From the IMG/VR virus record IMGVR_UViG_3300013121_000033, positions 32,001 through 96,000 of that record: 64,000 nucleotides of DNA. One strand, 5' to 3'. The notes beneath the pieces were generated by a model, which saw only the letters and a program-made list of their open reading frames with translations, did no database searches and was not told the DNA's origin. The number at the start of each line of letters is the position of its first letter. Within the stretch, counting starts at the first letter, position 1. The stretch comes from a virus (lineage: Duplodnaviria; Caudoviricetes). Positions 1 to 41,132 of this stretch are shown here, in pieces. A program made the translations under genes and the position numbers.

Positions 1-2
1 CC

Positions 3-15089: not shown

Positions 15090-15090
15090 C

Positions 15091-19342: not shown

Positions 19343-19364
19343 AGTATGTCGCGTGGGTGGGTCA
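19343..19364 (-). promoter_or_regulatory. Late-promoter motif TGACCCACCCA-N5-CATACT
   Basis: 7 nt before GTG at 19335. Confidence 0.7.
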
Positions 19365-19652
19365 GGAGGTCGCTTGGACGAGCGCTCGCCTGTCTCGGGC
19401 TTCGCGGATGCGCTTGAGGTCGTCCTCGGGGTGAGTGCCGGTCGGGTGCGTCCACGGGTTGAACCCGCCGTGGTCACCGTCACCGATCGCGAAGTACGCG
19501 GCGTTCGGGTCGACGGGCGGTTCGAATGTGGGGACGTTGACCTTGCCGGTGTCGTAGGCGTCGACCACGTCGTCCGCGGTGACGTTGCCTTGGATGTAGG
19601 CGTAGTAGAGCCGGTCCTCGCTGTTGTCGTCGTCCACGTCCACTCCCTTCAC
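19362..19652 (-). CDS. Small acidic protein downstream of the zeta-toxin-like giant protein (candidate immunity)
   Basis: Own promoter TTGACG(19684-19689)-18-TACATT(19660-19665), 7 nt before the GTG. Confidence 0.6.
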   Translation of the reverse strand: MKGVDVDDDNSEDRLYYAYIQGNVTADDVVDAYDTGKVNVPTFEPPVDPNAAYFAIGDGDHGGFNPWTHPTGTHPEDDLKRIREARDRRALVQATS

Positions 19653-19685
19653 ACCCACCAATGTAGGGATCACGTCAACAAGGCG

Positions 19686-22600
19686 TCAACCTGCGGGGGC
19701 GGCGGGACCGGCGACGGGTTCACCTGCCGGGACCACTTCCCATTCGGATGTCGTCCCGGAGAGGAACCCTGAGGGGATACCGCCACCGACGCCGATCTGA
19801 GCCCACGTCCCGTCGGGCTGCTTCACGAGGGGGACGCCGCGGCCGTCGACCCGTCGGATCGTTGTTCCTGCCTGCTCGGCGTCGAATCCGGAAGTGTCGC
19901 CGCGCTTGATCCGCTTCCGCTTCGGCGGAGTCGGCGTGGATGGCTTGTCGGACTGTGGGACTTCGGTGGTGAGCGGGCGGATGCCAGCCGGGCGGCTGCC
20001 GTCGCCTTCGACGTCGACACGCCAGTCGGCGTCGAAGGCGATGTCCTCGTCGGTGAACTCGGTGCCGGACGAATCGACCCATGTGCCGGTCGAGGTGCGG
20101 CGGAGTTGGTCGCCGACGCCGTCTGTTCGAGAGATGCGCGAGTCGGTGGGGAGCGCAGCGAGCGCGTCCGGGGTGTGCTTCGGGATCACAGTCGCGAGGC
20201 GTGCCCGGTTGTCGACCACGACTCCGTCGGTGAACAGCCCGTCGGCGAGCATCGCGTCGAAGTTGTCATCGACACTCGACGCAGCCCCGGGGAGTTGCGG
20301 TGCCGCGGTATCCCACGTTTGCGGCGGCACGAGGCGCCCACCGTCGGGGGTGGCGGCACCGCGTGCGTAGCGGTCGAGAGCGGATCGGCGTGAACCATCG
20401 AGCGTGATCCGGGCGTTGATCCCGACCCGTTCGTCGTAGCCGCGGTCGACGAGTTGTTGGACCTTCTTCTGGACGCCGCCGCGGGACACGAGGGTGCCGT
20501 CCAACGCGACGTTGTAGCCCTCGTCGATGAGCCGCTGCCACAGGGCCTTCGACAGGTACGACGACTCTTCGTGGGTGAGGCCGACCGTCTCCATCGGCTT
20601 GAGCCCTTCGACGTGCGGGTAGGCGCCGTGGTGGATCAGCGCTTCCTTCATGAGGTCGGGGTTGACGACGACGTGGGTGACACCGTCGGGGATGTCACCG
20701 GTGCCGGGCTCGAACATGACGAACCCGCGTTCGGCGGCCGGTCCACCCGGTTGCAGGGCGGTGGATTTCCCGGCGCCGGGGAGGCCCGCCATGATGACCG
20801 CACGACGTTCCTTCGGGACCTTCCCTTCGACCTGGCTGATGATGTCGTCGATGATCTGCTGGTGGAGGGCCTGGCGTTCCGGTGTCCATTCGTCGCCGTT
20901 GGGGCCGAGACGGTTCTCCAAGACGTGCGTGTCGAGCGGGCTGTCGGTGAGCGCGAGGTCGGAGAGGATCGCGGTGAGGGCCGCAGCGCGGTCGTAGGGC
21001 CGGTCGAACCCGGGGACGGACGCGACTGCTTCCTCGACCTGCGTGCGGAACCCTTGCGCCTCGGGGGTGAACCGCAACCCGACGTCGGCGTCGGGAAGGT
21101 TGACACCCTTGTCGATGGCTGCCTTGATCTTCTCGATGTCGCCGGGGTCGGCCTCGGGACCGGAGAACACTGAGGCGCCGGGGATGCCGACTTCGGCGGT
21201 GTACGCGTTCGCGAGAGCGAGGAGTTCGGTGATCGGCATGTCGATCCGTTGGATGTCCATGTCGGCTGCGCCGTCACCGTTCGCGAGGGCGTACGCAGCT
21301 TGGGCGGCCCACCGGTGGTGGCCGTCGACGACGTAGTCGTCGGACGACACGAAGATCGTGCCGCGCACAGCGTTCGGGTCGACTCCGATGTCCCGGTAGA
21401 TCGCTGCAACCTTGGCGCCGTCGAGTTCCGCTTGGGACGCCTTGAGCATCGACGGGTTGATCCGTTCGTCGGTGACCGTGACACCGGTCGAGCGGACGTA
21501 GTCGACGAACTGGTCGCCGACGTTCACCCACCCTTGGTCGTCGCGAGGGAGTGAGGCCGCCATGGTCCCGGGGAGCGGGTCCGGCGACGAGAACTGCGGC
21601 ATGTGGATGCGTTCGATCCCTTTGTTGTCCGCACAGAACAGGTTCGTGCCGGGTACGGACACGAGGCACAGGTCGTACTTGGGTGCGTCCGCTCCGGCGG
21701 CGACCGCTTCCTTCACCATCTCGTCGAGCTTGTCGACGAGAGTGGATACCTGGCGTTCGTGCGCGAGTTGGACATGCTGCTTCTGTGCGATGAGCGCGGC
21801 CGCTGTCTGGACGTCGGTGGTCTGGAACGGGTTCGCCTTGGTTCCGTCGCCAGCGGTCACCTGGTCGGCGAGGTCCGGGGTCAGATCAACCTTGGACAGG
21901 TCCGCCGTCGACCCCGAGGCTGCCGGGCTGGCGGCTTCGGGGTAGGAGACGACCTTGCCGGTGATGCCGTTGACGTTGATGGCGCTCGCTACGTTGCCGT
22001 GCTCGTCGCTGATCGTGCCGTCGTCGTTCAACGTGATCGTGTCGGCGAGGCCGTCAACCTTGAACTTCGTTCCGGCCGGGTACTTCGACGTGTCGATCTG
22101 ATGCTCGGTGTCGACCTCGGGGCGGTCCATGGCAGGAGAACTGACGGTGGGGAACCGTGACTTTGGGGGTTCACCCGCCGATGCTGCACGGTCAGCTTCG
22201 CGTTGTTGGCGGGCCGCTTCTTCCGCTGCGCGGCGGGCGGAGCGTTCTGCGCGGCGGGCGTCTCGGTCGGCAGCGACCTTCTCCCAGTCGGTGTTCCCGG
22301 TGTCCGGTTCCTGCGGCGCCCCATCGGGGAAGTACCCCCACTCCATGAGGTCATCGCCCGCGTACCGGACACTGTCGGCGGGAACCTGTTCGGACACGAC
22401 AACACCGGGGCCACCCGCGATGTTGGACGCGGCGTGCTGCTCTGCGTAGCTCCGGGAGAGCGTCACCCAATCGCCCTGGCCGAACGCCTTGCCCTGGTCG
22501 GCGACATCGGAAGGGACAGCCCGGTAGATCGTGACGGTCGCATCGGGGTTGCCGTCGACTGACCGGAGCGCGGCCATTGTCTCATCGACACCACCCGGGT

Positions 22601-24131
22601 TGGACGTGCCGTATCGCTCAGGGTGGTCCGCCCAATTGGCGGGCATCATCTCCGTGTCGTTGATGAGTTCCGCGGCGGACGGCCCGTACGTGGGGGTATG
22701 GCCGACTCCATGGCTGAACGCGTCGGGCGAGTCGGTGGAGTCGATGTTGAGGACGCTGCCGTCGGGGACCCGCCACTCGTGAGCGATCGGGTCTTTGAGG
22801 TCGACACCCATCGTTCCCGGCTTCGGTGACACCGTGACGATCCCAACGTTGTTGGGGTCGAGGTTTGCGAGGTCGTCGGCCTTCACGCCGGTGATGAACA
22901 TGTCGCGGGGACCGCCGCTGAATCCGCGTTGCATCGCGAACGTCTGGTAGAGGCCGAGCCGCTTCTGCGGATCATCGAACCGGCTGAGGTCGGAACCTTC
23001 GACAGCGACGAGGTTGTCGTAGAACGGGGCGGACCCTCCGTCGCCGGTCTTGGCGCGTTCGAACAGGTCGGCGGCGGTGATGTCTCCGCGGGCGACGGCG
23101 CGGGCTTCGAGAATCTGGTCGCGGATCAGGTCGGCGGTGGCACGGTCCGTGGTGAGACTGATCGCGTGGTCGGTGCCGCCACCGAGCCCCGACCCCGACC
23201 CGACACCGAGGTCGGCACGCGACTTGAGTGCCCCGTCGGCCTTCACCGCGGACAGGTTCGTGGTGACGTGGTACAGGGTGTCGGGGAGCGGGTCGAACCG
23301 GTCGGCCTGACCGTTCGAGATGTCATGAGCGACCGACTCCGCCTGCCACGGGGCGAGGCCGTAGTCGGACGTCAACTGCTCCTGACGGATGTCGCCCCGA
23401 GAGATCGCCTTCGCCGCTTCGACATTCCACGCCGGGGTGATGTCGGCGACACCGTCCACCTTCGGGGGAACCGGCAACGCAGCGTTGACCTGGGGGACGT
23501 CGGGGGCAACTTTGTCGGGAGTGTCGACTTCGGGGAGTTCGGGAAGGTCGTCCAACCACGACGAGAACTCGCGGTTCGCGAGGTCCCATGCGTTCTGGTC
23601 GTCACCCGGTTCCGACGGTCGTTCGCCGAGCACCTTCGCCGCCCACATGCCACGGTTCTCCCGAGAGTGGGGGCCTCGACCCCACCCGTCGGCCGCTTCC
23701 TTCAACTTCTTGTCGAACGACGCGAGGAGTTCGGTGCGGGCTGCGCCGTCCCCTTTGAGCAGCTTCCGGAGTAGGCCCTTGGACACGAACCCCTTGGGAG
23801 CGAACCTGCCGCTGTTCGGATCGTGCCAGTAGCCGAGTTCGTCGAGGCCGCCACCGATCCCGTCGCCCACCTCGTCCGCCGCCGACTTCACTTTCCGCTT
23901 CCCCGCGGCGGCGGTCACGCCCGGCTGGTACGGCTCCGGTTCGAGGTAGAGGTCAACTTTGTTGGCCCCGTAGTGGGCGATGACCTGTGCAAGTGGGACG
24001 GCTTCGCTATCCGGTTCGCCGTCCTCCCACACCATCGTGGTGTCGTCAGGGGTGCCGGATGCCCAAGATAGAAGCCTGCCGTCAGGGGTGTCGGCGACGA
24101 CGTAGACGGGCGCGGTGGCGGTGTCGGTCAC
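19686..24131 (-). CDS. Giant polyvalent protein 4: shared leader, two ADP-ribosyltransferase-like domains, ParB-like domain, zeta-toxin-like P-loop kinase
   Basis: TLYHVTT..ISLTTDR..HEWRV; VTIYRAVP..GDWVTLSRSYA..MEWGY; DDYVVDGHHRWAA; MAGLPGAGKST..NPDLMKE..HEESS..DGTL. Confidence 0.75.
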   Translation of the reverse strand: MTDTATAPVYVVADTPDGRLLSWASGTPDDTTMVWEDGEPDSEAVPLAQVIAHYGANKVDLYLEPEPYQPGVTAAAGKRKVKSAADEVGDGIGGGLDELGYWHDPNSGRFAPKGFVSKGLLRKLLKGDGAARTELLASFDKKLKEAADGWGRGPHSRENRGMWAAKVLGERPSEPGDDQNAWDLANREFSSWLDDLPELPEVDTPDKVAPDVPQVNAALPVPPKVDGVADITPAWNVEAAKAISRGDIRQEQLTSDYGLAPWQAESVAHDISNGQADRFDPLPDTLYHVTTNLSAVKADGALKSRADLGVGSGSGLGGGTDHAISLTTDRATADLIRDQILEARAVARGDITAADLFERAKTGDGGSAPFYDNLVAVEGSDLSRFDDPQKRLGLYQTFAMQRGFSGGPRDMFITGVKADDLANLDPNNVGIVTVSPKPGTMGVDLKDPIAHEWRVPDGSVLNIDSTDSPDAFSHGVGHTPTYGPSAAELINDTEMMPANWADHPERYGTSNPGGVDETMAALRSVDGNPDATVTIYRAVPSDVADQGKAFGQGDWVTLSRSYAEQHAASNIAGGPGVVVSEQVPADSVRYAGDDLMEWGYFPDGAPQEPDTGNTDWEKVAADRDARRAERSARRAAEEAARQQREADRAASAGEPPKSRFPTVSSPAMDRPEVDTEHQIDTSKYPAGTKFKVDGLADTITLNDDGTISDEHGNVASAINVNGITGKVVSYPEAASPAASGSTADLSKVDLTPDLADQVTAGDGTKANPFQTTDVQTAAALIAQKQHVQLAHERQVSTLVDKLDEMVKEAVAAGADAPKYDLCLVSVPGTNLFCADNKGIERIHMPQFSSPDPLPGTMAASLPRDDQGWVNVGDQFVDYVRSTGVTVTDERINPSMLKASQAELDGAKVAAIYRDIGVDPNAVRGTIFVSSDDYVVDGHHRWAAQAAYALANGDGAADMDIQRIDMPITELLALANAYTAEVGIPGASVFSGPEADPGDIEKIKAAIDKGVNLPDADVGLRFTPEAQGFRTQVEEAVASVPGFDRPYDRAAALTAILSDLALTDSPLDTHVLENRLGPNGDEWTPERQALHQQIIDDIISQVEGKVPKERRAVIMAGLPGAGKSTALQPGGPAAERGFVMFEPGTGDIPDGVTHVVVNPDLMKEALIHHGAYPHVEGLKPMETVGLTHEESSYLSKALWQRLIDEGYNVALDGTLVSRGGVQKKVQQLVDRGYDERVGINARITLDGSRRSALDRYARGAATPDGGRLVPPQTWDTAAPQLPGAASSVDDNFDAMLADGLFTDGVVVDNRARLATVIPKHTPDALAALPTDSRISRTDGVGDQLRRTSTGTWVDSSGTEFTDEDIAFDADWRVDVEGDGSRPAGIRPLTTEVPQSDKPSTPTPPKRKRIKRGDTSGFDAEQAGTTIRRVDGRGVPLVKQPDGTWAQIGVGGGIPSGFLSGTTSEWEVVPAGEPVAGPAAPAG

Positions 24132-24137
24132 CCGGCA

Positions 24138-24159
24138 AGTATGCGGGGTGGACTGGTCA
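24138..24159 (-). promoter_or_regulatory. Late-promoter motif TGACCAGTCCA-N5-CATACT
   Basis: 6 nt before GTG at 24131. Confidence 0.7.
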
Positions 24160-24429
24160 GCCGCGAGGTTCGGGGTCAGGAAGGTCGACGTCGGTGTCGG
24201 TCACGGTGAGGCCGACGTCACGAGCCGCGGCGGCGAACGCCGAGAACGCTGCGACGTCAGCTTCGGGAAGGTCCCAGTTGCCGGTGAGCCCGACGAACTC
24301 GTCGACCTGCAACCCGACCAGTTCCCCGGACTCCATCGCCGCCTCAACCTCGGACGCGACCACGTCGAACGGGGTGACCCCGTCGCGGGTCGCCGTGTAG
24401 GTGACCCCGTTGCTCAACGTGACCTTCAT
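24157..24429 (-). CDS. Small acidic protein (candidate immunity)
   Basis: ATGA overlap with giant gene 3; TCGACG-17-TACGGT embedded in the end of that gene. Confidence 0.6.
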   Translation of the reverse strand: MKVTLSNGVTYTATRDGVTPFDVVASEVEAAMESGELVGLQVDEFVGLTGNWDLPEADVAAFSAFAAAARDVGLTVTDTDVDLPDPEPRG

Positions 24430-27400
24430 GGCGCCACCGTACCCGCCGCGGCGCCTGCCGTCGATGCTGCCACGTCAGGAGTGGGCAGTGGGGCTACCGG
24501 GGTTGGGGTGCCGGGCAGGGGGGCGCCTTGGATGGGGGTGGTGTTGCCGTCGACACCTGCGGGGGTTGTCGGGGTGATCGTCGCCATGAGGCCCGCCGCG
24601 AAGGCTGCGAGCTTCGGGTCAGCGAGCCACGTTCGGGACTCACGATGACGGCGGTTCGACTTCGAGAACTGCTGCACCGCGGTCGTGAACACCTCGAAGT
24701 TTCCGCCGTCGCCGACGGACGGCTTGTAGAGGCGCCCCGAGTATTCGTCGGCGAACTCGTCTTTCCAGCCTTGCGGGTGGCGCCCGGACACCTGGCGGGT
24801 CCACCTGAACTTCTTGCGGTCCGGGTCGGCGGCGACACGGCGGATCAGGTGCCACGCTTCGGCGGCGGTGAGTCCTGCGAGGGTGTCCTCGAAGCTGTGA
24901 CCGAACTCGTGTGAGACGACGTCGACATACTTGGGCTGCTTCGTGACCGACGGGACGGACAGTTTGTGGGTGCGGCCCTCGTTCCAGTGGGTGCCGCCAC
25001 CGAGGCCGCGGGCGCCTTGGATCGCGAGGCGTTGCGGGACGCGACGGAAGATCGCCGACCACGACGTCGGGAAGATGCGGAGCCCTGCTTCGGCGGTGCG
25101 GCGCACGTCGTTGTTCCCGAGGCGGGCGAACGGCTTGTCCTCGGGGTACTTGCCGGAAGCGGCGAACACGGCGTGCGCGTCGACGCCCATCGGGATACCG
25201 AGCGCTTCCATCGTGTCGACCCACGCCCGGGTGATGTCGGGCACCTCGGAAGCCCCTTCGAGTTCCGCTGCGCGGCGGCGGCGGGCGATCGTCTTGAGGA
25301 TGTCGGCGCCGTTACCGTCCAGGATCACGGTTGTCGATTCGGTGCGCCGGTACACCTCACCGGTTCGTTCGCTGACCCCGGTCGTCGGATACGACCATGT
25401 CATCTTGACCTGGCCGCCCTTCGAGACGTGGATCGCTACCTTCGATGCAATCCCGCCGGTCGGGATGCGAGCACTTAGGCCATTCGGCTGCCCTGTGTCG
25501 GGGTCGAAGTACGCGTAGACCTCGTAACCGTCGTACGTTTTCCAGGTCGAGAAATCGTTGATGTCGGTGTTGCGGAGCCACCCCAGCCGTTCCGTCACGG
25601 CTGCAACGTCAGCGGGGTCTGTTTCGGGGGTTGGGTTGCCGACGCCGTTGAGGACGGTGTTGACGATCGCTGCTCGGATCGGGGTGGGGCTTTCATCGCC
25701 TTCGCCGTAGTCGGGGAACAGGGCGGTGAACCTGGCGTCCACCACAGCGGTGAGTGCCGCCCCGAATTCCTCGACCCGGTCGAGGTTCCGTACCGACGTC
25801 CGTTCATCCGGGGTGAGGTTGTCTGACTCGATGCGGTCCAACAGTTCACCGTCGCCTGGTTCCTGGCTTTCGGGTCGCGAGAACCACGACGCGTGATCGG
25901 CGGGGAGGCCGTCGAGGACTGTTTGGCGGGCGGCGGCGAGCGCCGCGACGCGTTCCTCCCACGGTCGGGTTTCGTCGAGCGCGACGGTGTAGTCGGGGTC
26001 GGGGATGACCCCGAGTTCGTCGGCGGTCGAGATGGACGTCCACAGGTCGGTTCCGCCGTCGCCGTTCGGTTCGGCGTAGACGATGTCGCGGGCGGGGAGG
26101 CTGACATCGCCGTCGGGGTCGGCGACGAAGTGGCCGCCCACCCACCGGGCGGCGACGGTGTCGTCGTTCGAGCCGCTGCGCAGATCACGGATCGTGTCCC
26201 GCGACCTGGTCATGAGCGCTTGGACAAGATTGTCCTCGCGTCCGCTGATCGTGGCGCCCCGCCCGGAACGGAGCGACAGGACAACCCGGTCGGCGTCGGC
26301 GGCTCCGGCTGCGGCGTCAGCGACCGCCAGGAGGCGTGAGACGCGGGGGTCGGTGACGGGGAGGACGATGTGGTCCTCGTCGGACACCGGGAGCGTCGAG
26401 TTCATGAACCCGTACGGGAACGGCGACCAGCCGACCGTGTGGTCGCGGACGTTGACGGACACGGTGAGCGGCTGCGCTCCGGGCGGCCAGGTTGTGACCC
26501 GCCACATGCCGGTCGGTTCCACGACGGGCTCCGAGGCCGACGACCCGTAGGCAGCCCGCCTGTGCCACACCCCGTCTAGGTCGACGACCGCTTCGTTGCC
26601 GTTGGCTGACCGGAGGGCGGTGCCTTCGGGGAGGAACTTGCGGGCCTCGGGGTCGGACGCGTCGAACATGACGGACGGCTTGCGGGTGATGGTCCGGAGG
26701 GCCGCCTTGATGCCAGAGCCGCGTTCGGCTTCGGTGACGAGGTCGAGGCCGTTTGCGATGTCGGGGATGAGGGCGTCGATGCGGGCGTCGATGTCGTCGG
26801 GCAACGGGACCCGAGCGGTCGTGTCGGCGTCGAGTGGAGGGTTGGCCCACAGGAACGTGGGGACGCCGTCGGTGTCGTTGAGGGTGCCGTGCACGTTGCC
26901 CCAATTGAGCGTGACGGGCTTGACTCCGTTGATCGGGGTGGTCGTGTAGATGGCGCGGCCGCCGACGGAACCGATCTCGTAGGCAGGCCACTGCACGTCA
27001 ACGTTGCCGACCGTGACACCGCCGCCTTGGGTGGCGTTCGCCGTCGTCGCGTTCGACCGGAGGAACGCAGCGACCGCTCGCTGCGGGTCGTCCGGCTGCG
27101 TGATGTCAGCCATCGCGTAACTCGTCGGACCGTCGAGGCGGCGCTTCACCGCCGCTGCGTCGACATCACGCCAGTAGCGAGCGACATCTGCCGGGTCGAG
27201 ATCACCGACCGCCGAGAACAACGCCTGCCGTGCGGCAGAAACATCTGTGAACGACGCCGCCGCAGACGGGGTCGGACCCTGCGGTTCCGGGTCTGGGGCT
27301 GCGCCGTCGGGTGCGGTGTCTGCGAACCGGGACCACTTCACCTTGAGCGCGGGTTGGTCGTCGCGGGGGATGCGCGCGTACGTGTCGTCCACGTACTCGA

Positions 27401-30400: not shown

Positions 30401-30713
30401 CCTTGAACAGAGCGCGGAGGATGCGGGCCGAGATGTAGCCCTTCGGTGCGAACTTCCCGGTGGACGGGTCATGCCAGAACCCGAGTTCGTCGAACCCGCC
30501 GACGCCTTCGCCGACGTCGCGGCGAACCCGACGCGCAGCAGCGGTCACGCCCGGGTCGCGGCGGCCGGGGCGAGCGGCGGCGATCTCCGTGTAGCTGTAG
30601 CCGTCGGCGAGGAGCGCGGCGCGCTGCTCTGCCCACAGTTCAAGGTCGACCGGGACGGTGTCGACGGGCGGCCCAAGGTTCGGTTCGGTGAGCGGGACAG
30701 CAGGCGTGGTCAC
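24426..30713 (-). CDS. Giant polyvalent protein 3: shared leader, ART-like domain, two GNAT domains, two SH3-like repeats, C-terminal zincin
   Basis: VTLSRG..GLTSWST..DEVIV; QQGNGIGTRF and HTGKGVGTRL acetyl-CoA motifs; HEFGH..EVFTT. Confidence 0.75.
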   Translation of the reverse strand: MTTPAVPLTEPNLGPPVDTVPVDLELWAEQRAALLADGYSYTEIAAARPGRRDPGVTAAARRVRRDVGEGVGGFDELGFWHDPSTGKFAPKGYISARILRALFKGDGKARTEFLGLLDKRAHDDPDFGRGLWRENGGRWSELVLGPRPDRSGDDRNVWDAAQRELANWHARNIDRLTAPAADTPAAARSLEAAMKAPTRDDLTPEELAAFEDITKLLPGFDPNASWGEPGAEAERFSLFAWTRRLLSDVMKSEDPQPEQVQGLKTMHRLWAERAPETVTLSRGSDSKDPFGGNDPGRYGSPGRKGDTATSGLTSWSTLPAEKNRNRDNPGSPKKWGRNDTTRDFPIDQVLGKGGADKDEVIVVRDPKIIDAIEAWPEPIDGVPTAPFNTFPERHAAAMTARAELPAVTEPPTLAGRRLADVPKLDGPADDALTVSEDPAFIRSLFEHDLGDDTRSVVDDIEPGAIGGNTTVRGRIEVEGQTVGTFTRYVRSRHFDYGEAVVVHDQFVLDKDQQGNGIGTRFLAASLDAYRSAGVDRVVMNATSSAGGGDLNGAYTWAKAGFDWGLNPDWFAPGGKQDLNHIESNLRSVGDDVMADRMAEVTRKLVAGEPLTDTDLTPYEVAVAHREVLTAEAGDEQSVHFWAVLHIRPDTAESPAPRTDTGMQPLATPWEAATGEATRVRRDGAGKFTVLTASGKTLGSYGGRAGARWASTADGTEITSDSPVSVGVLRGLIERAALDAQTADTARPLGDVLAAAGADRSTWDASVKDRLAPVFTADLGDGYTATPSVRLARDHSIDVTGEITHNGDKVGIYTYRLSLDEDGSPVAHLASMELEGAHTGKGVGTRLAAHIEDGLAAQGVQRLSVTAVSEPARPGHTRMTGALAWADAGFDWASVASGHQIGNLLLERDPDNELGRQLVAVGDGKSIAEMVRMKAPDGYPTPYEVARDPVGREVLLGSASWAGAKSLTGDVLDAPTVDLPTSVKDRVRASDGPTLAIARDNYLSRLGVQKGDAVAVEYQDDTYATVTLDNGERFKVKWGRFSDAEPGPGTRVVSAPSRTPNTTRTTTGAGAATRDRIRDAGGTGEAVVADNYLNRHGYPQGSTVPVEYVDDTYARIPRDDQPALKVKWSRFADTAPDGAAPDPEPQGPTPSAAASFTDVSAARQALFSAVGDLDPADVARYWRDVDAAAVKRRLDGPTSYAMADITQPDDPQRAVAAFLRSNATTANATQGGGVTVGNVDVQWPAYEIGSVGGRAIYTTTPINGVKPVTLNWGNVHGTLNDTDGVPTFLWANPPLDADTTARVPLPDDIDARIDALIPDIANGLDLVTEAERGSGIKAALRTITRKPSVMFDASDPEARKFLPEGTALRSANGNEAVVDLDGVWHRRAAYGSSASEPVVEPTGMWRVTTWPPGAQPLTVSVNVRDHTVGWSPFPYGFMNSTLPVSDEDHIVLPVTDPRVSRLLAVADAAAGAADADRVVLSLRSGRGATISGREDNLVQALMTRSRDTIRDLRSGSNDDTVAARWVGGHFVADPDGDVSLPARDIVYAEPNGDGGTDLWTSISTADELGVIPDPDYTVALDETRPWEERVAALAAARQTVLDGLPADHASWFSRPESQEPGDGELLDRIESDNLTPDERTSVRNLDRVEEFGAALTAVVDARFTALFPDYGEGDESPTPIRAAIVNTVLNGVGNPTPETDPADVAAVTERLGWLRNTDINDFSTWKTYDGYEVYAYFDPDTGQPNGLSARIPTGGIASKVAIHVSKGGQVKMTWSYPTTGVSERTGEVYRRTESTTVILDGNGADILKTIARRRRAAELEGASEVPDITRAWVDTMEALGIPMGVDAHAVFAASGKYPEDKPFARLGNNDVRRTAEAGLRIFPTSWSAIFRRVPQRLAIQGARGLGGGTHWNEGRTHKLSVPSVTKQPKYVDVVSHEFGHSFEDTLAGLTAAEAWHLIRRVAADPDRKKFRWTRQVSGRHPQGWKDEFADEYSGRLYKPSVGDGGNFEVFTTAVQQFSKSNRRHRESRTWLADPKLAAFAAGLMATITPTTPAGVDGNTTPIQGAPLPGTPTPVAPLPTPDVAASTAGAAAGTVAP

Positions 30714-33700: not shown

Positions 33701-34234
33701 GTCGTATTGCCACGGGCGTGTCGTTTCCCAGTCGGCGATACCGAGGCGAGCGATGTCGGGGCGGAACACGTCGGCACGTTCTTGGTCCGCGGTGCGGGAC
33801 AGGGTGGGGGGGTGCCAGTTGCGGACCTCACGGAACCCGGCATCCCAAGCGTTGCGGTCGGGGCCTGCGATTGCGGGACGGTCCCCGAACGCTTCTACGG
33901 CCCACCGGGTGTCGTCGCGGAGCCCGGTGTCCCATCCGGGGGTGGAGCGGTAGTGGTCGTCGAGCAGCCTCCTGATCTCGGATCGGGCCTGGCCGTCGCC
34001 GCGGAGTAGGCGGCGGAGCAGGTTGAACGACACGAACCCGCGGGGCGCGAACTGGCCGTTGCCGGGGTCGTGCCAGTTCCCGAGTTCGTCGAGGCCGCCT
34101 TTCGCTTCGTCCTCGACGCGGCGGCGGACAGCGGCGGTGACAGGAGCGAGCAGGTCGATGACGTCGCTGAGCGGGACCCCGGCGGCGAGAAGAGCGGCCC
34201 TGCTAGCAGCGTAATCAGGGGCCGACGTCGACAC
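30710..34234 (-). CDS. Giant polyvalent protein 2: shared leader, zincin, two GNAT domains, C-terminal zincin
   Basis: HEAGH..EMTAE; VDPGHRGE; HQGQGIGTRF; HETGH..EGFAEAF; likely GTG start at 34234. Confidence 0.75.
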   Translation of the reverse strand: MSTSAPDYAASRAALLAAGVPLSDVIDLLAPVTAAVRRRVEDEAKGGLDELGNWHDPGNGQFAPRGFVSFNLLRRLLRGDGQARSEIRRLLDDHYRSTPGWDTGLRDDTRWAVEAFGDRPAIAGPDRNAWDAGFREVRNWHPPTLSRTADQERADVFRPDIARLGIADWETTRPWQYDQADVAAGRSPGWLQPGARAHASYEHRDGNVYLRVSPDYWSSPPETRRATLYHEAGHVLDAMLPAADKQAAYNRLTDGPSWIPSHDNPDEMTAEAYALLHTNPQWLVDHQPALHQWVIDQADRHGLPVPDAARTVTPRPVGDVIPGGSKFGQDRIADLPVGAEFEDRIGQRFTRTADGAVSARGAVSLGHLTGDEPGGYPKGAEFTAYGDIELAAAPESPSAPIDPALERELRDRIPLVKPEPPSGFADERIDLPTPKFGEPWPTKPPHPVTGWEEPVSAFKLPNGRAVTVVSSGGDSIDGYYLSSYVMNDTVTGDPIGYLDYTSGHGELAIRMVEVDPGHRGEQAADALLAYTLAATDPNAKVDPGYRTNDGDRWWNRVREWLPAANQTAPANPENEQRAIESRLRAVLPQAVGPVDSLNDYKGVDLGHERTAHAETLARSLLEHDLGDGVRSKVTEATLSNGQLVVSGVIEDSDGVEVGQFDRSFYIDSDGAATAYQIDLAIDPAHQGQGIGTRFLAASLDAYLAAGVDKVTVYAVSDPNLGANGGYTWARAGFDWDPTHHSSLGEIGRHLRAAGDDAMADRVEQVRAKFDAGEPLDASDITPYEVATIHPDIMKSGVGAWDGVLNLRPDPPPVPPRTTPAAKRLKKADVAKLVADGTDLWADRGRPASDAQSVALVRVQSLLDSHPPERLAEIEAMTPEERNALSGRDGLIGTALWREARGYKLTDTEQLALAFYRRDPDVIAREFEKWRQRFEGKSRERRWRESPPIIDSELDPAVIADVESDWREAMANDRVQQAFARLGIDQPRLIVSYRRDPEHEPATANYQQGSGTVWLNSRREIGGDPIAVNVRGDRFDIGDVTTVGWLRGSETPDRRAVLTHETGHYVHDSISDVGWVGTPLADEWKRLWDRYHAAYTSEWENAWGGSGDRLSRMKRRFISFYSNENAQEGFAEAFAAAALGGDTSDFGPEAQALIDWMNTNIIGTGAPAAAPGVAP

Positions 34235-34370
34235 TGTCGGTCCCGGTGTCGGCCTGCCGGTCGGCTTCGATCTGTTCGTAGATCGAGTCGGGCGGGTCGT
34301 CAGTCGTCGCTGTCCGAGCCCAGTCCAGGTAGGCAGCGTTGACGCGCCCGAGCAGTTCCGTCCGGTCCAT
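34215..34370 (-). CDS. 51-aa acidic protein (MDRTELLGRVNAAYLDW...)
   Basis: ATG 7 nt after the late-motif -10 element; below the ORF-track cutoff. Confidence 0.55.
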   Translation of the reverse strand: MDRTELLGRVNAAYLDWARTATTDDPPDSIYEQIEADRQADTGTDSVDVGP

Positions 34371-34377
34371 GCCGTCA

Positions 34378-34399
34378 AGTATGTCGGGTGGGTGTGTCA
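34378..34399 (-). promoter_or_regulatory. Late-promoter motif TGACACACCCA-N5-CATACT
   Basis: Same architecture as the other six copies. Confidence 0.7.
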
Positions 34400-34426
34400 G
34401 CGCCCGCCGTACATAGTTGATGATGG

Positions 34427-34738
34427 TCAGGTGGGGATGCGGGCCTCGCGCCAGGCGATCACCGTCGGGTACACGACGGGTTCGGTGTCGGTGATGACGC
34501 CCTTGTACTCGGACAGGTTGACCGGCAGGAACGTCTCCGGGTCGAACGGGTCGGCGTCGCGTGCGGTGAAGATCAGGGGATCGTCGGAGATGTCATCGAG
34601 GTACCGGCCGACGGGGTGACCGTCGGCGTCCTTGCCGATCTCGACGACCGGACGCTGGTCACCCCACTCTTCGTACATCTGCGTGTACTCGCCGTACTGC
34701 CAGGTGCCCTCAGGGTTGGTTGGGTCGAGCGGCCTCAT
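34427..34738 (-). CDS. Small acidic protein (candidate immunity)
   Basis: ATGA overlap with giant gene 1; same 24-bp junction as 24426-24449. Confidence 0.6.
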   Translation of the reverse strand: MRPLDPTNPEGTWQYGEYTQMYEEWGDQRPVVEIGKDADGHPVGRYLDDISDDPLIFTARDADPFDPETFLPVNLSEYKGVITDTEPVVYPTVIAWREARIPT

Positions 34739-37700
34739 GGCGCCACCGTACCCGCCGCTGCGGCGTCTCCCATCGCTGCGACGTCCACGGGGGCGTCCGG
34801 TGCGTCCGGTGCGCCACCTCCGATGCCGGGAAGCTGCGGGGTGAACGGTTGCGTTGTCGGCGTGGAAGGTTCAGCGATCGGGACGTCGACAGGTCGGACC
34901 GGGCGGATGTAGTCGAGGAAGTACGAGAACGCCTGCTCGGCTTCACGGCTGTACCCGCGGCGACGGTGGAACTTCGGGTGGGTGACCGTCGTGTAGAACT
35001 CGGCGATCAACTCGGCGCGGTTCGTTGCCGCATAGCGTGACACCTCAGCGATGACCGACTGGTTGTCGAGGACGTACTTGATGAACCGTTCACGTTCCCG
35101 GCGGCGGGTGTGTTCGAGTTTCCCGTCGATGACGTGGCCGAACTCGTGGCGGACGAGGCCGGTGACGGAACCGTCCGCCGAGAACGTCCACTTCCGTTTC
35201 GTCGCGTCGTCGAGGAACACTCCGTCGGGCACCATGCTTTTCGCGATGGGGCCGTCGGCGGGGTCGCCGATCTCGACGATCTCGTCGCCGACTTTCGTTC
35301 GGCTGCGTAGCAGTTCCGAGACGGCCGCCCACGCCGACGCGTCCGATTCGGCGCGTGACTTGTTGAACCCGATGACGGACGTACCGGTGACAACAAACGC
35401 GATCGTGTTCGGGTCGACGCCGTGAGAGAAGTAGCCGAACACGGGGGCGCCGAAGCTGTCGACCTGCGCGGCGAGCATCGGGCTGGACGCGACTGCTTCG
35501 GCCCATGACGCCATGGCGAGGTCGTGGTCTGCTGTCGCTTCGCTCCCGAAGCGGGCTCCGAACTTGTCGACCCAGAAGTCGGACAGCCCGGCCTTCTTGA
35601 ACTGTCCCGACCCGATCTGGTCGAGACTGTTCGCGGACTGCGCTGTCGGGAACGCTGCCCCGTCAGCGAACGCGTCGATGAGCCGCTTCCGAAGCTGGGC
35701 TTCGTCCATCCCAGCGTGGAGCAGGTTCCGCTGAGGCGGAGTCAGGTCGGAGGTGGCTTCGTGGCCGACGGCGATCTGGACGTCGGACCAGTTGAAGTCG
35801 GGGTGTTGAGCGAGAGCGGTGAGGACGGCAGTGGCGATCTTGTCGACGGCGGCGGTGTCGTCGGTGACGAGCCCGTTGCCCTTGATCTGGTCCGGTTCGG
35901 GGATCGCCGCGAGGATCGCCGAGGTGACGTCGGGTCGCTGTGCTGCAACGCGGTTGGTGCGGAGTTGGTCGGTGACGCGTTCGGCGAAGTCGATGAAGGC
36001 CCCGAGGCCGCCGACCTCGTAGCCGTTCTGGACTGCCATGAGGTCCGCGTCGGTGAACCCGTCGAGCGGCGGGAACGCTCCGATCGCAGACCCGAACTTG
36101 CGTGGTTGCGCCCCCATCGACTCTTGGAGCAGGTCGAGGTAGGCGATCGTGCTGCCGATCCGGTCAAGCGCGATCTGGTCGCCGCCGCGGGCGATGGCGA
36201 TGAGGTCGGGGAGGGTGGTTTCGAGGGTGCGGTTGAACTCGTCGAGTGCTGGACGGTTCCATCCGCCTTCGAGGCCGAGGGCGCGGGCTTCGGCGACGAG
36301 GTCCGCTGCCCGTTGGGTGGTGCGGCCGAATCGTTCGAGTCGCGCCGCTGTCGCCGCGTCGCTTTCCACGGTTCCGGTGCGGCGGAGGGCGTAGCGGATG
36401 GTGCCGACCTTCTTGCGGGCTTCGCCGATCTGGCCGAGAGTGACGTTCGGGTCGCCTGCCTGCCAGCGGGCTTCGAGGGTGCGGGCGACTGCCGTAGCAC
36501 GGTTCGCCCAATCTCCGGCGGCGAGGTCCGCTGCGGACATGTTGTAGGAGCGGACGTCGAGAACGGCTTGGAACTCGGAGGCCAGAACGTTGGGGTCGAG
36601 GATCAGCCCGGTGGGGTCGATGTCGGGGGCGTCGGGGATGGCGACGGGTTCGGTGACCCCTTCGTAGCCGTACTCTGCGAGACGTTCAGCGATCTGAGCG
36701 TCGAGTGCTTTGCGGGTCTTGGGGTCGAGGGTGTCGCGTTTCTCTGCGGCGTAGTTGAGCAGTGCGTTGACGGCGAGTGCTTTGCGTCGCTCGGAGGTGC
36801 CGGACTGGAAGTTCGAACCGCGGCCGTTGCGAGTGATTCGGGCTGCTGAGCCCCCCCACTCGAACGACTGCGAGTCGGTGCCCTTCATGATCTTGGCGTC
36901 CCAGATTCCGGTCTTGCGGTCGCGGCCGACGACGACATTCGAACCGCCCTTGTAGGAGCGGGTCACGGAGAGGCCGTCGGGGAGGAGGACGGTGACAGTC
37001 GACGACTCGGGGTTGAGGGTGTAGATGATCTCGGGTGACGCGTACCGGTCCGTCGAGTACGGGGCCGGTTCGCGCCATGCCGCGGTCGAGTCGTCGAACC
37101 CGGTGTAGTCCAGCGACGCCGTATCTGGCAACGGGTCCGGCCCGTTCGGCACGTCGACTGGTTCGTCGGGTTGTGACGGGGTGACCGCGAGGGTGGTGTC
37201 GGCGCCGACGAGGTCACGGAACGTGTCGTAGGGGATCAGGGTGCCGGACCCGGAACGGACGCCGTCGGATTCTGTCGTGTAGGTCGTCCCGGACGGCATC
37301 GTGACAGTCGATCCCAACGGGAAGTCGCGGAGGCCGTCCGGGGTCGACGGGCGCGTCTCGGGGACGTCCGGGTTGGGGGCGTCCGGTTCGGGGACCGGGG
37401 CGGCGAGGTTCGCTGCGGTCCATCCGTCCTGCCACGCCTTGAGAACGTCGATGTTGGACCCGACCTCCGGGTTGAGGACCAGGTTCTTGTCGAGGGCCGG
37501 GGCGTTCGTCTTGCCATCCCGGTATGCCTGCGCGCCGAGTTGGCGGGCCTCTTCGACCGTCGTGAACGGACGGTCCGGCACTTCCAGGGCCTCGGGGACG
37601 TCCGGGGTGGTGTCAGGGACGGAGTCGACGATCCACCGGTCGCCCCGAAGGCCCTGGCTGATCGCCCCCCACCCGTCGGCCGGGGGTGACCAGATGTCGC

Positions 37701-40113
37701 CTGAGCCAACCTCCAACTGGCCGGAGTCGCCGACACGGAACGTCGTGTTGGGCAGGTCGGTGTTGCGAAACGTCGCCCCCGGGGGAAGTTCACGCAGCTT
37801 CCACGGTGGGATCGAGTCGCCCGCGTTGAACTCGGTGGATGCGTCGGGGGTGACGGGTGCTGCCGGTGCGACGTTGCTCGCGTCGGGAGTGTTGACCGCT
37901 GTCAGGTTGGAGACGTCGTAGTTCGTCGGGTCCCACCACGCCTTGTCGTCGTCGTAGAGCGCCTGGACCTGGTCATGCAGGCTGTCGTCGAGAGTCGAGT
38001 AGACGTTGCCGTCCTTGACGAGGTACATGCGACGCTGCTTCGTGAGCCGCCCGTACTCGTCGATGTTCTGCCACTGGAACTCGTAGAACCCGTCCTCTTG
38101 GAAGTTCGGTCGGACAGCCCAACCGCGGACTGCGCCGGAGCCGCCGATGTCGACCGTCGCCCGTTGCGACACGACGCCCTTCGACACGAAGTCGCGGGAG
38201 AACCTGCCAGTCGACCAGTCGCCGCCGTCGATCTTCGCTAGGTACGTCTTGGCCGTCGGCGCCTTTTTCGTGAAGATCGTTGCGATCGGAGCGATCGGCT
38301 TCGGTTCCTCGGGGGCGGCAACGTCGATCCCCTCGGCAACCCCTTTCGCTTGCGCGTCGGTGACAGCAGCGGCGAGGGCGTCACGGATGAACCCGGTGTT
38401 CGACGATGGCCCCTCGGTCGGGTCCTCGGTGGGGTTGAGGGAGCCGTACTCGGAGATGCCGCGGCCTTCGTTCCGGATCGTCCAGTCGGCCGACGTCCTG
38501 AACGGTGTCGATGTCGAGTAGCCGACGTTGCGACGGTCGAGTTCGAGCGTGGCGTCGACTTCGATCTTCGTGGTGGTGCCGTCAGGCTCGGGGATGTCGA
38601 GTGTGTAGGTGTCGGTGCGGGACTCGATCCACCGGCCTGGCTGCGACCCGACCCGTTCCCGGTCTGTGCGCCCCTTCGCCACGCTCCACCCGAGCGGCGA
38701 TGACGGTGTCGCGTCGGGTTCGGGGATGCCCGGTTCGGTGGCGGGCATCTTGTTCTTCTCGGGGAGCCATTCCTGGACGCGCTCCCACCACTTTGCTCCG
38801 TCCTCGGTCAATACGCCGGGGTTGACCTTGAGGTCAGGGTTGTCGGCGATCGTTCGCGCCAGGAGCACGTCCCCGACTTGTTCACCGTGGAACCCTGGGT
38901 CGGCTTCGACCATCCGGATGAACAACTCGCCGTCGCGGCTGCTCGACGTGTAGTCGAGGTACCCCATCCGGTCACCTGACGCCGCGTCGTACATGGCGTA
39001 GGACGACAGGTAGTCGCCGTCGATCGAGTCACCGCCGACGCTGCGAATCTCGACCTCACGGCCGGAGGGAAGCAGGACCCGGCTTTCCGGTTCGCGGTAC
39101 CCGGTCACCGGGTGCGGCGCGGCGGTCGGCCAGTCCTGACCGAGCGTGACCTGTGGGCGGTCCGGCTTGGTGATCGTGGGAACGTCCGGTTCTGGCGAAG
39201 GCGCCGTCGCTTCGGGGACGTCGGGGGTGGGGGCTTCGGGGGGCGGGTCGATCGCCCAACCGTCGCCGTCACGGCGCGGGACGTTGTCGGTGAACCTGGC
39301 CCACGCCGCTTTGATCTCGCGGCCGTCGCCGGTCGTGACGAGCGCAGAACGGTCGTCGGAGTATCGGACGTGGACGATGTCGCCCTTTGCGATCCCGTAG
39401 CGGGCGAGGTACCCGTCGGCGACTTGTGCCGGTCCGCCCTGGTCGCCTGCTTCTTTCAAGCGGGTAGCGGTGAGCGCACCGACACCGACCTTCGTGGCAG
39501 TCGTGTTGCCACGTTGCTGTGGCCGGTCGATCCGAGCGTGGGTGTCGTCCGCTGCGAAGTCGGCGAACCTCCCCCACTTCACCCGGTACTCGGACCGGCG
39601 CCCTTCGGTGTCGAACACGTCAATGATGCCGTGTTGGTCGTCGCCGAACCGGACTCGAACCGCTTGGCCTTTTCCGATCCCGAGCCGGGACAAGTAGTTG
39701 TCGCGTGCGACGAGCCAGTCACCGTCCGGCTTGCCTTTGACGTGATCGACAGCGAACAGGGACCGCATCGCTTCCAACGCGAGCGCTTTCGCCGTCGACC
39801 ACCCTGGCTTTGCGAACTCTCCGGAACCGGGGTCATGCCAGTTCCCGATGTCGTCGAACCCGCCGAGGGTGCCGTCATCGGGGACAGCGCGGCGCACCTT
39901 CCGTGCTGCGGCGGTGACGCCGGGCTGTTGCGACGGTGACCCGACCGGAGGGTTCGGGTCCGGGTCGGTCGGGTGCATCGGCATGTCGACCTGCACGTCG
40001 GAGATGCGCGCCAGGATCATCTCGGCGAGGACCGCCTCGATCTGGTCGAGTTGTTCTTCGAGCGCGTCGACCGCGCCGATGAGATCGACGGTCGACTCGT
40101 TGTCGGCAGCCAT
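34735..40113 (-). CDS. Giant polyvalent protein 1: shared leader, two SH3-like repeats, GNAT, unknown domains, C-terminal zincin
   Basis: ATG at 40113 directly after the protease stop; IRMVEADPGFHGEQVG; HEFGH..RYAATNRAELIAE. Confidence 0.75.
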   Translation of the reverse strand: MAADNESTVDLIGAVDALEEQLDQIEAVLAEMILARISDVQVDMPMHPTDPDPNPPVGSPSQQPGVTAAARKVRRAVPDDGTLGGFDDIGNWHDPGSGEFAKPGWSTAKALALEAMRSLFAVDHVKGKPDGDWLVARDNYLSRLGIGKGQAVRVRFGDDQHGIIDVFDTEGRRSEYRVKWGRFADFAADDTHARIDRPQQRGNTTATKVGVGALTATRLKEAGDQGGPAQVADGYLARYGIAKGDIVHVRYSDDRSALVTTGDGREIKAAWARFTDNVPRRDGDGWAIDPPPEAPTPDVPEATAPSPEPDVPTITKPDRPQVTLGQDWPTAAPHPVTGYREPESRVLLPSGREVEIRSVGGDSIDGDYLSSYAMYDAASGDRMGYLDYTSSSRDGELFIRMVEADPGFHGEQVGDVLLARTIADNPDLKVNPGVLTEDGAKWWERVQEWLPEKNKMPATEPGIPEPDATPSSPLGWSVAKGRTDRERVGSQPGRWIESRTDTYTLDIPEPDGTTTKIEVDATLELDRRNVGYSTSTPFRTSADWTIRNEGRGISEYGSLNPTEDPTEGPSSNTGFIRDALAAAVTDAQAKGVAEGIDVAAPEEPKPIAPIATIFTKKAPTAKTYLAKIDGGDWSTGRFSRDFVSKGVVSQRATVDIGGSGAVRGWAVRPNFQEDGFYEFQWQNIDEYGRLTKQRRMYLVKDGNVYSTLDDSLHDQVQALYDDDKAWWDPTNYDVSNLTAVNTPDASNVAPAAPVTPDASTEFNAGDSIPPWKLRELPPGATFRNTDLPNTTFRVGDSGQLEVGSGDIWSPPADGWGAISQGLRGDRWIVDSVPDTTPDVPEALEVPDRPFTTVEEARQLGAQAYRDGKTNAPALDKNLVLNPEVGSNIDVLKAWQDGWTAANLAAPVPEPDAPNPDVPETRPSTPDGLRDFPLGSTVTMPSGTTYTTESDGVRSGSGTLIPYDTFRDLVGADTTLAVTPSQPDEPVDVPNGPDPLPDTASLDYTGFDDSTAAWREPAPYSTDRYASPEIIYTLNPESSTVTVLLPDGLSVTRSYKGGSNVVVGRDRKTGIWDAKIMKGTDSQSFEWGGSAARITRNGRGSNFQSGTSERRKALAVNALLNYAAEKRDTLDPKTRKALDAQIAERLAEYGYEGVTEPVAIPDAPDIDPTGLILDPNVLASEFQAVLDVRSYNMSAADLAAGDWANRATAVARTLEARWQAGDPNVTLGQIGEARKKVGTIRYALRRTGTVESDAATAARLERFGRTTQRAADLVAEARALGLEGGWNRPALDEFNRTLETTLPDLIAIARGGDQIALDRIGSTIAYLDLLQESMGAQPRKFGSAIGAFPPLDGFTDADLMAVQNGYEVGGLGAFIDFAERVTDQLRTNRVAAQRPDVTSAILAAIPEPDQIKGNGLVTDDTAAVDKIATAVLTALAQHPDFNWSDVQIAVGHEATSDLTPPQRNLLHAGMDEAQLRKRLIDAFADGAAFPTAQSANSLDQIGSGQFKKAGLSDFWVDKFGARFGSEATADHDLAMASWAEAVASSPMLAAQVDSFGAPVFGYFSHGVDPNTIAFVVTGTSVIGFNKSRAESDASAWAAVSELLRSRTKVGDEIVEIGDPADGPIAKSMVPDGVFLDDATKRKWTFSADGSVTGLVRHEFGHVIDGKLEHTRRRERERFIKYVLDNQSVIAEVSRYAATNRAELIAEFYTTVTHPKFHRRRGYSREAEQAFSYFLDYIRPVRPVDVPIAEPSTPTTQPFTPQLPGIGGGAPDAPDAPVDVAAMGDAAAAGTVAP

Positions 40114-40118
40114 GAAGG

Positions 40119-41072: not shown

Positions 41073-41079
41073 GGGTGAC

Positions 41080-41101: not shown

Positions 41102-41132
41102 TCTATCCGCCACAGCCCCCCATGTCAGGCAT

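Follow-up and report, generated by a model that had tools for sequence, protein, structure and literature searches.

Here we describe an array of four giant genes in the head module of a tailed virus (Duplodnaviria; Caudoviricetes), together with an N-terminal element, termed here the address module, that is common to their products. The window, meaning the whole stretch of DNA analyzed, is 64,000 nucleotides (nt) long and corresponds to bases 32001-96000 of the 225,159-bp IMG/VR virus record IMGVR_UViG_3300013121_000033, which has a G+C content of ∼68%. Coordinates are those of the window unless the record is named. The head module lies on the minus strand and consists, in order, of a portal gene, an HNH endonuclease gene, a gene for a 327-amino-acid (aa) protein, giant 1, a 103-aa gene, giant 2, giant 3, a 90-aa gene, giant 4, another 103-aa gene, two small genes in scaffold position, and a 710-aa major capsid gene. 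Translational coupling is suggested for this module because several of its gene junctions overlap by 4 nt.

An initial annotation of the sequence had described four giant genes of 1792, 1174, 2095, and 1481 aa between a protease gene and a capsid gene, and all four are present on the minus strand. The limits of their open reading frames (ORFs) are 34735-40206, 30710-34378, 24426-30713, and 19686-24131. Starts at 40113 (ATG, 1792 aa) for giant 1 and at 34234 (1174 aa) for giant 2 yield the annotated lengths and match the database representatives P0015 and P0008. The proposed array start at 19362, however, takes in a separate 103-aa gene. Placement within a head module is likewise borne out, with the portal gene (phrog_776) upstream and the 710-aa gene (phrog_777) downstream. 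The latter does encode the major capsid protein, whereas the upstream 327-aa gene, annotated as a protease, can on weak evidence be called only protease-like.

All four giants share a leader composed of VTAA, a basic patch, and the motif GG(F/L)D(D/E)(I/L)G-x-WHDPxxGxFA(P/K)xG, as had been noted at the outset. Translation of the giant 1 copy (39799-39918, minus strand) confirmed the order VTAA, basic patch, and WHDPGSGEFAKPGW. Pairwise BLAST comparisons over the leaders gave E values of 1e-6 to 1e-29, and a six-frame search of the 225-kb record returned exactly four copies, those of the giants. Directly after the leader, giants 2, 3, and 4 carry the previously recognized shared domain of ∼80 aa, such that their address modules, counted from VTAA to the end of this helical domain, span 33791-34141, 30180-30548, and 23547-23918, respectively (all on the minus strand). 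An AlphaFold model of the giant 4 module, built with a 33-sequence alignment, places the WHDP segment in an extended, low-confidence conformation and folds the next 80 aa into a four-helix bundle with predicted local distance difference test (pLDDT) values >90. The extended, low-confidence WHDP segment of this model is as expected for a docking peptide. A second class of module, comprising giant 1 and proteins P0006 and P0007 of the viral contig L005, has SH3-like "ADNxLSRxG...W.RF.D" repeats in place of the helix bundle. The common tag of the initial annotation is a real shared leader but, rather than a bare peptide, it is a ∼110-aa module akin to the protein that this phage encodes in scaffold position.

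Structure-based searches with the address module gave no informative neighbor. Foldseek with the model against the PDB and BFVD returned nothing below E 0.5, a wide structural comparison (VIA) peaked at Z 5.0, a value that helical bundles give in general, and a shape search of the Atlas reached template modeling (TM) scores of at most 0.42. Nor is the leader covered by any Pfam, PHROG, NCBIfam, PDB, or GenBank phage match, in line with the initial annotation, which knew of no description of it. Against 50,697 GenBank phages, neither tblastn of the leader (E up to 1) nor megablast of 10 kb of the window gave a match, and a word-indexed protein search in "longer" mode retrieved the query itself only. 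When 185,579 species genomes were scanned with the four leaders of the window, neither a relative nor a prophage copy turned up, and hence no host was assigned; as one pattern only was used, this counts as weak evidence of absence.

The four proteins are paralogous at their N-termini and mosaic elsewhere, as proposed. Giant 1 (34735-40113, 1792 aa) comprises a coiled-coil pro-region, VTAA, the leader, two SH3-like "ADNYLSRxG" repeats, a GNAT, long regions without a family, a C-terminal HEFGH domain, and an Ala/Pro tail ending in GTVAP. Giant 2 (30710-34234, 1174 aa) has the leader and four-helix domain, an HEAGH domain, two GNATs, a C-terminal HETGH domain, and a tail ending in PGVAP. Giant 3 (24426-30713, 2095 aa), whose start overlaps the giant 2 stop by 4 nt, continues from the leader and four-helix domain into a possible ADP-ribosyltransferase (ART)-like region, two GNATs, two SH3-like repeats, a C-terminal HEFGH domain, and a tail ending in GTVAP. 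Giant 4 (19686-24131, 1481 aa) begins with a globular pro-domain, followed by VTAA, the leader and four-helix domain, a region with ART-like leads, a DGHHR (ParB-like) region, a zeta-toxin kinase domain, and an Ala/Pro tail. All four genes are on the minus strand; Ala/Pro tails are thus a common feature, as annotated, and three end in G(T)VAP.

The predicted enzymatic content held up to differing degrees. Five GNATs had been counted; Pfam assigns two each to giants 2 and 3 (PF00583 and relatives, with 41.5 bits in giant 2 and 38.9 bits in giant 3 against a cut-off of 20.7), and the fifth, at residues 319-496 of giant 1, is identified by its 52% identity to residues 449-621 of its paralogue giant 2. 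The zeta-toxin-like domain of giant 4 (20256-20813, minus strand) matches PF06414 with an E value of 1.3e-15 (57.8 bits, cut-off 22.3) and PDB entry 1GVN with E 0.005, and its Walker A sequence GLPGAGKS is invariant in six homologues. For the four annotated zincin domains, four HExxH motifs do exist, but no Pfam zincin family matches the giants, and no peptidase family match was found in Pfam for the HExxH regions of the window proteins, including excised regions; the relative P0007 has a Peptidase_Mx match (E 2.8e-4) under the cut-off of that family. Three ART-like domains had also been proposed. None is confirmed by Pfam, in which the excised candidate regions have no match even at E ≤ 1, and weak leads exist for one region only, residues 470-625 of giant 4 (phrog_2579 and ART-clan Atlas neighbors at a score of 0.77). 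The ParB-like assignment in giant 4 corresponds to phrog_2859, a PHROG without an assigned function, and to a DGHHR motif seen by eye only. PDB sequence searches with the four giants recovered the zeta toxin only, and Pfam searches with ten excised regions without a family gave nothing useful. At least two distinct effector or enzymatic domains per polypeptide can be counted in giants 2 and 3 (two GNATs each) and in giant 4 (Zeta_toxin together with the phrog_2579 and phrog_2859 regions).

To define the family, we built a profile from seven leaders and compared it with 1.84 billion cluster representatives. It recovered 74 protein clusters at E ≤ 1e-3, of which 26 remained at E ≤ 1e-10. With few exceptions, members have a length of 700-3600 aa and carry the module close to the N-terminus. 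Their C-terminal portions are unrelated and contain, among others, zeta toxin, DUF3626, and GNAT domains; a C-terminal HExxH is present in 20 of 64 large members. This search, which had been suggested along with the initial annotation, thus delineates a rare family with variable C-termini and, where the context is readable, a portal-to-capsid position. Some members from other contigs depart from this layout. One subfamily (P0012, P0019, P0020, P0026, and P0030) lacks WHDP and has GGGRFAKKG instead, and its members carry a second VTAA ∼30 residues before the C-terminus that is followed by a basic helix, an arrangement suggesting an additional, cleavable C-terminal extension. In P0044 and P0072, the leader is internal (residues 1509 and 891, respectively), behind other effector domains, and the proteins open instead with another motif, PRDGDGDGFVYD, possibly an alternative address peptide.

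The genomic surroundings of these relatives resemble those in the window. Three consecutive leader proteins are encoded in L005 immediately upstream of a phrog_777 capsid gene, whose product is 44% identical to the window's capsid protein. The order in contig L011 is terminase, portal homologue, leader protein, a small 104-aa gene, and a 1986-aa GNAT protein; WhiB, ERF, and SSB, which are typical of actinophages, are also present there. Two leader proteins lie near a portal homologue in L012, and further arrays of two and three leader proteins occur in L006 and L008, respectively. Wherever the context can be read, the head-locus position of the leader genes holds.

A VTAA-like site ahead of the motif recurs across much of the family. 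Of the 43 clusters whose representatives have 40 aa or more before the motif, 33 have TA[A/G] 9-40 residues ahead of W(H/N)DP, as compared to 3.8% of control windows in the same proteins, and the ten exceptions have VVAA, VAAA, or similar at the site. Fifteen further clusters begin no more than 40 aa from the motif, some exactly after the site ("MPRRPNLPD..." versus "...VTAA|PRRPRVD..."). What precedes xTAA is interchangeable: a coiled coil in giant 1, a globular pro-domain in giant 4, and an entire copy of the 327-aa protein in six clusters. The same residues recur in other head proteins. VTAA at residues 384-387 of the capsid protein (nt 17128-17139) lies directly before the conserved core and aligns with HTAA just before AICxPLDI in L005 and with LVAS|GGYCAPL in phage GMA2; a cut at residue 384 would give a 326-aa mature capsid protein. 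The portal protein has VTAA twice, once near its N-terminus and once in the linker that joins its core to a conserved C-terminal domain; the second site is kept in L012. FAVTAA is found at residue 226 of the 327-aa protein, after its conserved domain, and AVTAA is located likewise in GMA2 orf12. Of the 29 VTAA occurrences in the whole record, 13 are in head-module proteins, which account for ∼15% of coding capacity.

On comparative evidence alone, the xTAA pattern is that expected of a maturation-protease site. The initial annotation had proposed that the maturation protease exposes the tag; xTAA before the motif, a fused protease-like domain, and conserved sites in head proteins lend this comparative support, with the cleavage itself being what we infer. 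An arrangement of xTAA plus basic residues as in the window is also seen in GMA2 (contig L014, accession KR063281), where orf10 and orf13 share "RTAAGAKKYGVPIG" near their N-termini; the GenBank record of this phage annotates orf9, orf10, and orf16 as putative structural proteins.

The enzyme that would read this site is most likely the 327-aa protein encoded next to the giants (40119-41102, minus strand), although this assignment is a weak one. The protein has H99, H122, an SGDWR motif, and a C-terminal Cys-rich knuckle in addition to FAVTAA; H99, H122, and S183 are conserved in seven homologues, and GMA2 orf12 is homologous to it. Its ESM Atlas neighbors include Peptidase_S77, Mu-like_Pro, and S78 clusters, which are leads only (scores of 0.87, TM 0.37-0.40). 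In the six clusters mentioned above, a 327-aa-like protein (35-47% identity, E 1e-34 to 1e-57) is fused directly before the module.

The small genes adjoining the capsid gene bear on the origin of the module. The 18712-19335 gene (minus strand, start candidate 19335) lies in the position of a scaffolding gene and encodes a fifth, cargo-less paralogue of the module, which has the pro-domain, VTAA, a coiled coil, and, in degenerate form, the helical domain but lacks WHDP. Its product matches residues 9-192 of giant 4 (E 1e-17) and P0010 (E 2e-42). The neighboring gene (18442-18684, minus strand) encodes an 80-aa coiled-coil protein that has a weak DUF7310 coiled-coil match and is weakly like the giant 1 pro-region (E 0.002, in a small database). 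Because a cargo-less paralogue occupies the scaffold position and the 80-aa product weakly resembles the giant 1 pro-region, the address module looks scaffold-derived, and this in turn suggests that the cargo would co-assemble with the procapsid core.

Giant 4 is followed by a gene for a 103-aa acidic protein (19362-19673, minus strand), a candidate antitoxin or immunity partner of the zeta domain. Small genes homologous to it (E 1e-12 to 1e-14) follow the zeta-bearing relatives P0013 and P0021, and a similar gene after P0027 was recognized by eye only. A model of the complex between the zeta domain and the 103-aa protein scored 0.81, against 0.09 for the best control; the mark used was reached by 58 of 80 solved complexes and by 2 of 110 mismatched pairs. 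Three runs shared at least 58% of contacts, with a partner pLDDT of at least 71. The modeling supports, but does not demonstrate, binding of the 103-aa acidic protein by the zeta domain; as epsilon/zeta complexes have already been solved, part of the score may reflect memorization of those structures. Two more acidic genes are interspersed among the giants on the minus strand. The start of a 103-aa gene (34427-34738) overlaps the giant 1 stop, and its product, which has no family match and no homologue in the loci fetched, is a candidate neutralizer or chaperone. A 90-aa gene (24157-24429), with no detectable homologue or family, overlaps the giant 3 stop. Both genes are translationally coupled to the giants whose stops they overlap, and their products may neutralize or chaperone the C-terminal HExxH domains.

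The remainder of the head module was delimited as follows. The portal gene (42069-44420, minus strand; phrog_776, E 5.6e-26) has its true start near 44420, and its L011 and L012 homologues align from ORF residue ∼300. An ORF call reaching 45308 (42069-45308, 1079 aa, minus strand) is an over-extension, and its first ∼295 residues were rejected as a real domain, being Arg-rich junk opposite a real plus-strand gene (44589-45872; phrog_1499, E 3.5e-83). The conserved C-terminal domain of the portal protein (∼270 aa, 42069-42884, minus strand) is preceded by a Pro-rich linker and ends in PFPPHxALxG..F...DHxxCxC, which has a weak likeness to the end of the MuF profile. The match to the end of PF04233 is seen only in the portal homologues of L012 (E 0.05) and L011 (E 0.14), and the window's own portal copy has none. 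It is absent from the giants, without any match in the record at E ≤ 0.1, and the giants were accordingly rejected as MuF fusions. Their description as MuF-independent holds for the giants themselves but is tempered by these weak matches of the portal C-terminal domain.

Between the portal and protease-like genes, an HNH endonuclease gene is inserted (41133-42044, minus strand; phrog_826, E 1.4e-38; Pfam HNH_3). A second HNH endonuclease gene, with helix-turn-helix and zinc-finger motifs, also interrupts the head module at 7737-8822 (minus strand). The major capsid gene (16156-18288, minus strand; phrog_777) encodes a 710-aa protein with a long N-terminal extension that is homologous to capsid proteins of Gordonia phages, with GMA2 and Sixama, at 21% identity, as its sole cultured relatives. 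At 8854-10530 (minus strand) lies the gene for a 558-aa protein with a 2H phosphoesterase (2'-5' RNA ligase/LigT-like) domain, DUF7218, and VTAA at residues 423 and 461. The same 2H phosphoesterase domain recurs in P0046, P0057, and P0065, leader proteins in which it separates the leader from the protease-like domain, and because of this the 558-aa protein may be a further head cargo.

Outside the window, record bases ∼1,300-16,000 hold a second complete, small HK97-type head-tail module, with a terminase-sized gene, a phrog_12 portal, a Peptidase_S78 protein (E 5e-42), a phrog_10 capsid protein, and a tape-measure-sized gene; locus L013 (record bases 2941-6396) is within it. The first ∼30 kb of the record have a GC fraction of 0.71-0.72, and their tetranucleotide profile correlates at 0.93-0.94 with that of the rest, as compared to 0.98-0.99 for all other 15-kb segments. 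In all probability a separate element or a chimeric join, this left end has its boundary near window positions 1-2000. The S78 protease at 4.4 kb of the record was set aside as the processing enzyme on these grounds, as the 30-kb end has portal, capsid, and tail genes of its own together with the distinct GC content and tetranucleotide profile.

Observed directly are the module family, its head-module position, its linkage to xTAA, the protease-like fusions in other phages, and the recurrent pairing with small genes. The explanation that best accommodates them, and that we consider probable as a whole, is that the giants are paralogous cargo of the capsid interior, effectors of the polyvalent or ejection type that are scaffold-related, would be trimmed by a protease, packaged, and injected, and belong to an uncultured phage with a high-GC actinobacterial host. 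The address module would then be read, from the N-terminus, as an optional pro-region, xTAA, a basic patch, G-x-W(H/N)DPxxGxF-x-x-G, and a small folded domain (four-helix bundle or SH3-like repeat), with mosaic enzyme domains (GNATs, HExxH domains, the zeta-toxin kinase, and possible ARTs) behind it. The scaffold-related module would bring the cargo into the assembling procapsid, where the cargo would be cut at xTAA by the head maturation protease, for which the neighboring 327-aa protein is the likeliest candidate; the capsid protein, the portal protein, and the protease itself would be cut likewise. The basic-patch/WHDP end would remain on the mature cargo, which would exit with the DNA and act on the next host, and in the producing cell the small acidic protein encoded just downstream would keep the zeta-toxin domain inactive. 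A broader proposal is advanced more tentatively: the xTAA-basic-W(H/N)DPxxGxF module may be an unrecognized, portable, scaffold-derived capsid-address system, read by an xTAA-cutting head protease of new specificity and used throughout a lineage of actinobacterial phages to load enzymes and toxins, each toxin with its own neutralizer.

Several observations weigh against the packaged-cargo explanation. No cultured phage among the 50,697 GenBank records has the module. Since the family clusters are interrelated, the 33 of 43 clusters with TA[A/G] do not amount to 43 independent events. Head genes are not recognizable in L006, L007, and L010, which are short contigs. The 327-aa protein has no match in Pfam (E ≤ 1), NCBIfam, or a PDB profile search, its AlphaFold2 model from seven sequences was unusable (pLDDT 36), and the record has a genuine S78 prohead protease at another place (4.4 kb), albeit in the compositionally different 30-kb end with its own portal and capsid genes. 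Other observations are accommodated by a reading, unlikely in our view, in which nothing is cut: VTAA and the basic patch would be part of a conserved helix or of a DNA- or portal-binding segment, their recurrence in other head proteins would be due to compositional chance, and packaging would still be possible. The residues of VTAA are indeed common in an Ala-rich proteome, with 16 of the 29 copies lying outside the head module; the first capsid VTAA (residue 267) is not conserved in L005; and membership of the 327-aa protein in a protease family is not demonstrable. Against this reading, the sequence upstream of xTAA differs in length and type among members, from a coiled coil or a globular pro-domain to an entire protease-like domain, and it is missing from 15 clusters, whose proteins begin at the site or shortly behind it. 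The sites in the capsid, portal, and protease-like proteins are, moreover, positionally conserved at domain junctions in homologues.

Whether the giants are virion proteins at all, and effectors if so, was weighed on other evidence. Since packaging of the giants rests on inference and the small, neutralizer-like genes downstream recall polymorphic toxin-immunity cassettes, the giants could be late-expressed proteins of toxin-immunity or host takeover, active in the producing cell or set free at lysis to act against competitors, with the N-terminus serving as an oligomerization, regulatory, or export module. This is improbable given that the genes are within the portal-to-capsid block and in places translationally coupled, that the same placement recurs in unrelated contigs, that the module is fused to a protease-like head protein in six clusters, and that it is paralogous to the scaffold-position protein. 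This last relationship also fits giants that are mainly structural, namely internal core, scaffold, or pressure- or DNA-organizing proteins of a large capsid, like an inner body, whose enzyme-like domains would be inactive or of secondary importance. No enzyme family is recognizable in most of giant 1 or in large parts of giant 3. Such a role is given a similarly low probability, as the catalytic signatures are intact (the zeta Walker A and the GNAT matches above Pfam cut-offs), a dedicated predicted neutralizer suggests an active toxin, and C-terminal content that is mosaic and variable among relatives is typical of effectors.

Packaged and injected phage proteins decide the first minutes of infection through host takeover, anti-defense, and killing. 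To our knowledge, almost nothing is known of such proteins in phages of Actinobacteria beyond MuF fusions. For this group, there is now an address module that can be searched for (74 clusters), along with a candidate site rule for the protease, common to the capsid, portal, protease-like, and cargo proteins, and a conserved, predicted toxin-neutralizer pairing. If the packaged-cargo explanation is true, packaged effectors would be predictable from sequence in this lineage, and the tag could be used for loading chosen proteins into capsids. Work on T4, phiKZ-like phages, P1, and the polyvalent proteins has already established the principle, and the gain here is a new instance and a variant of the mechanism.

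The closest parallel in kind is with the phage polyvalent proteins described by Iyer, Burroughs, Anand, de Souza, and Aravind in 2017, which are giant, multidomain proteins with GNAT, ART, ParB-like, and zincin domains that are predicted to be packaged and injected (PMC5512222). As in that group, the proteins here are giant, multi-enzyme proteins of phages with a portal and terminase, and their genes are among head and packaging genes, between the phrog_776 portal and phrog_777 capsid genes in the window and likewise in L005 and L011. Whereas polyvalent proteins have MuF or other known head anchors, the giants have neither MuF nor any other catalogued N-terminal domain; they instead carry an uncatalogued ∼110-aa module, and they form an array of four paralogues with a cargo-less fifth. 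Very large, head-packaged enzymes are also known from P1, in which the anti-restriction proteins DarB and DdrB are incorporated in an ordered manner, processed proteolytically, and act at entry (PMC5512222; PMC12810830). There is no sequence relationship to these proteins, and P1 uses the incorporation proteins DarA and Hdf as opposed to a tag shared by the cargo.

The proposed processing has its nearest counterparts in T4 and in large-genome phages. In T4, internal proteins IPI-III and Alt bear a capsid targeting sequence that is removed by the gp21 prohead protease (PMC3012670, PMC9026906). The giants are proposed to share with them an N-terminal address into the prohead core and a protease site rule in common with the capsid protein. 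The T4 tag, however, is ∼10 residues long and is itself removed at an (L/I)xE site, whereas here the candidate site is xTAA and the WHDP module, which follows it, would stay on the mature cargo; no T4-type tag of ∼10 residues ending in (L/I)xE was found in the leaders, which have no sequence similarity to T4. Ejection proteins of SPN3US, phiKZ, and 201phi2-1 have propeptides cut by the prohead protease (PMC5694885, PMC7411985, PMC10052503). These phages likewise have large genomes and many head-internal proteins, some of them paralogous, and in their case one protease recognizes a short motif and the cargo enters the host. The lineage (a phrog_777 capsid protein, distantly related to those of Gordonia siphophages) and the motif are different here, and the cargo is recognizably enzymatic, whereas most of theirs is of unknown function.

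The predicted toxin-neutralizer pair is comparable to epsilon/zeta (PezAT; PDB 1GVN) in that a zeta-type P-loop kinase (PF06414) is encoded beside a small acidic protein that is predicted to bind it. Unlike in epsilon/zeta, the toxin here is the C-terminal domain of a 1481-aa head-module protein, the small gene follows the toxin gene rather than preceding it, and the 103-aa protein has no detectable similarity to epsilon or to another family. The initial annotation had proposed a head-packaged, multi-enzyme payload with a leader of which it knew no description. The general kind of such a payload, including an address removed by a protease, is already known from the polyvalent proteins (PMC5512222), T4, and SPN3US, and it is the leader that stands as undescribed. 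What is new here is the address module, which is uncatalogued, ∼110 aa long, scaffold-related, and located after a candidate cleavage site; the xTAA candidate site rule, the array of paralogues, and the predicted dedicated toxin neutralizer also set this system apart from those known.

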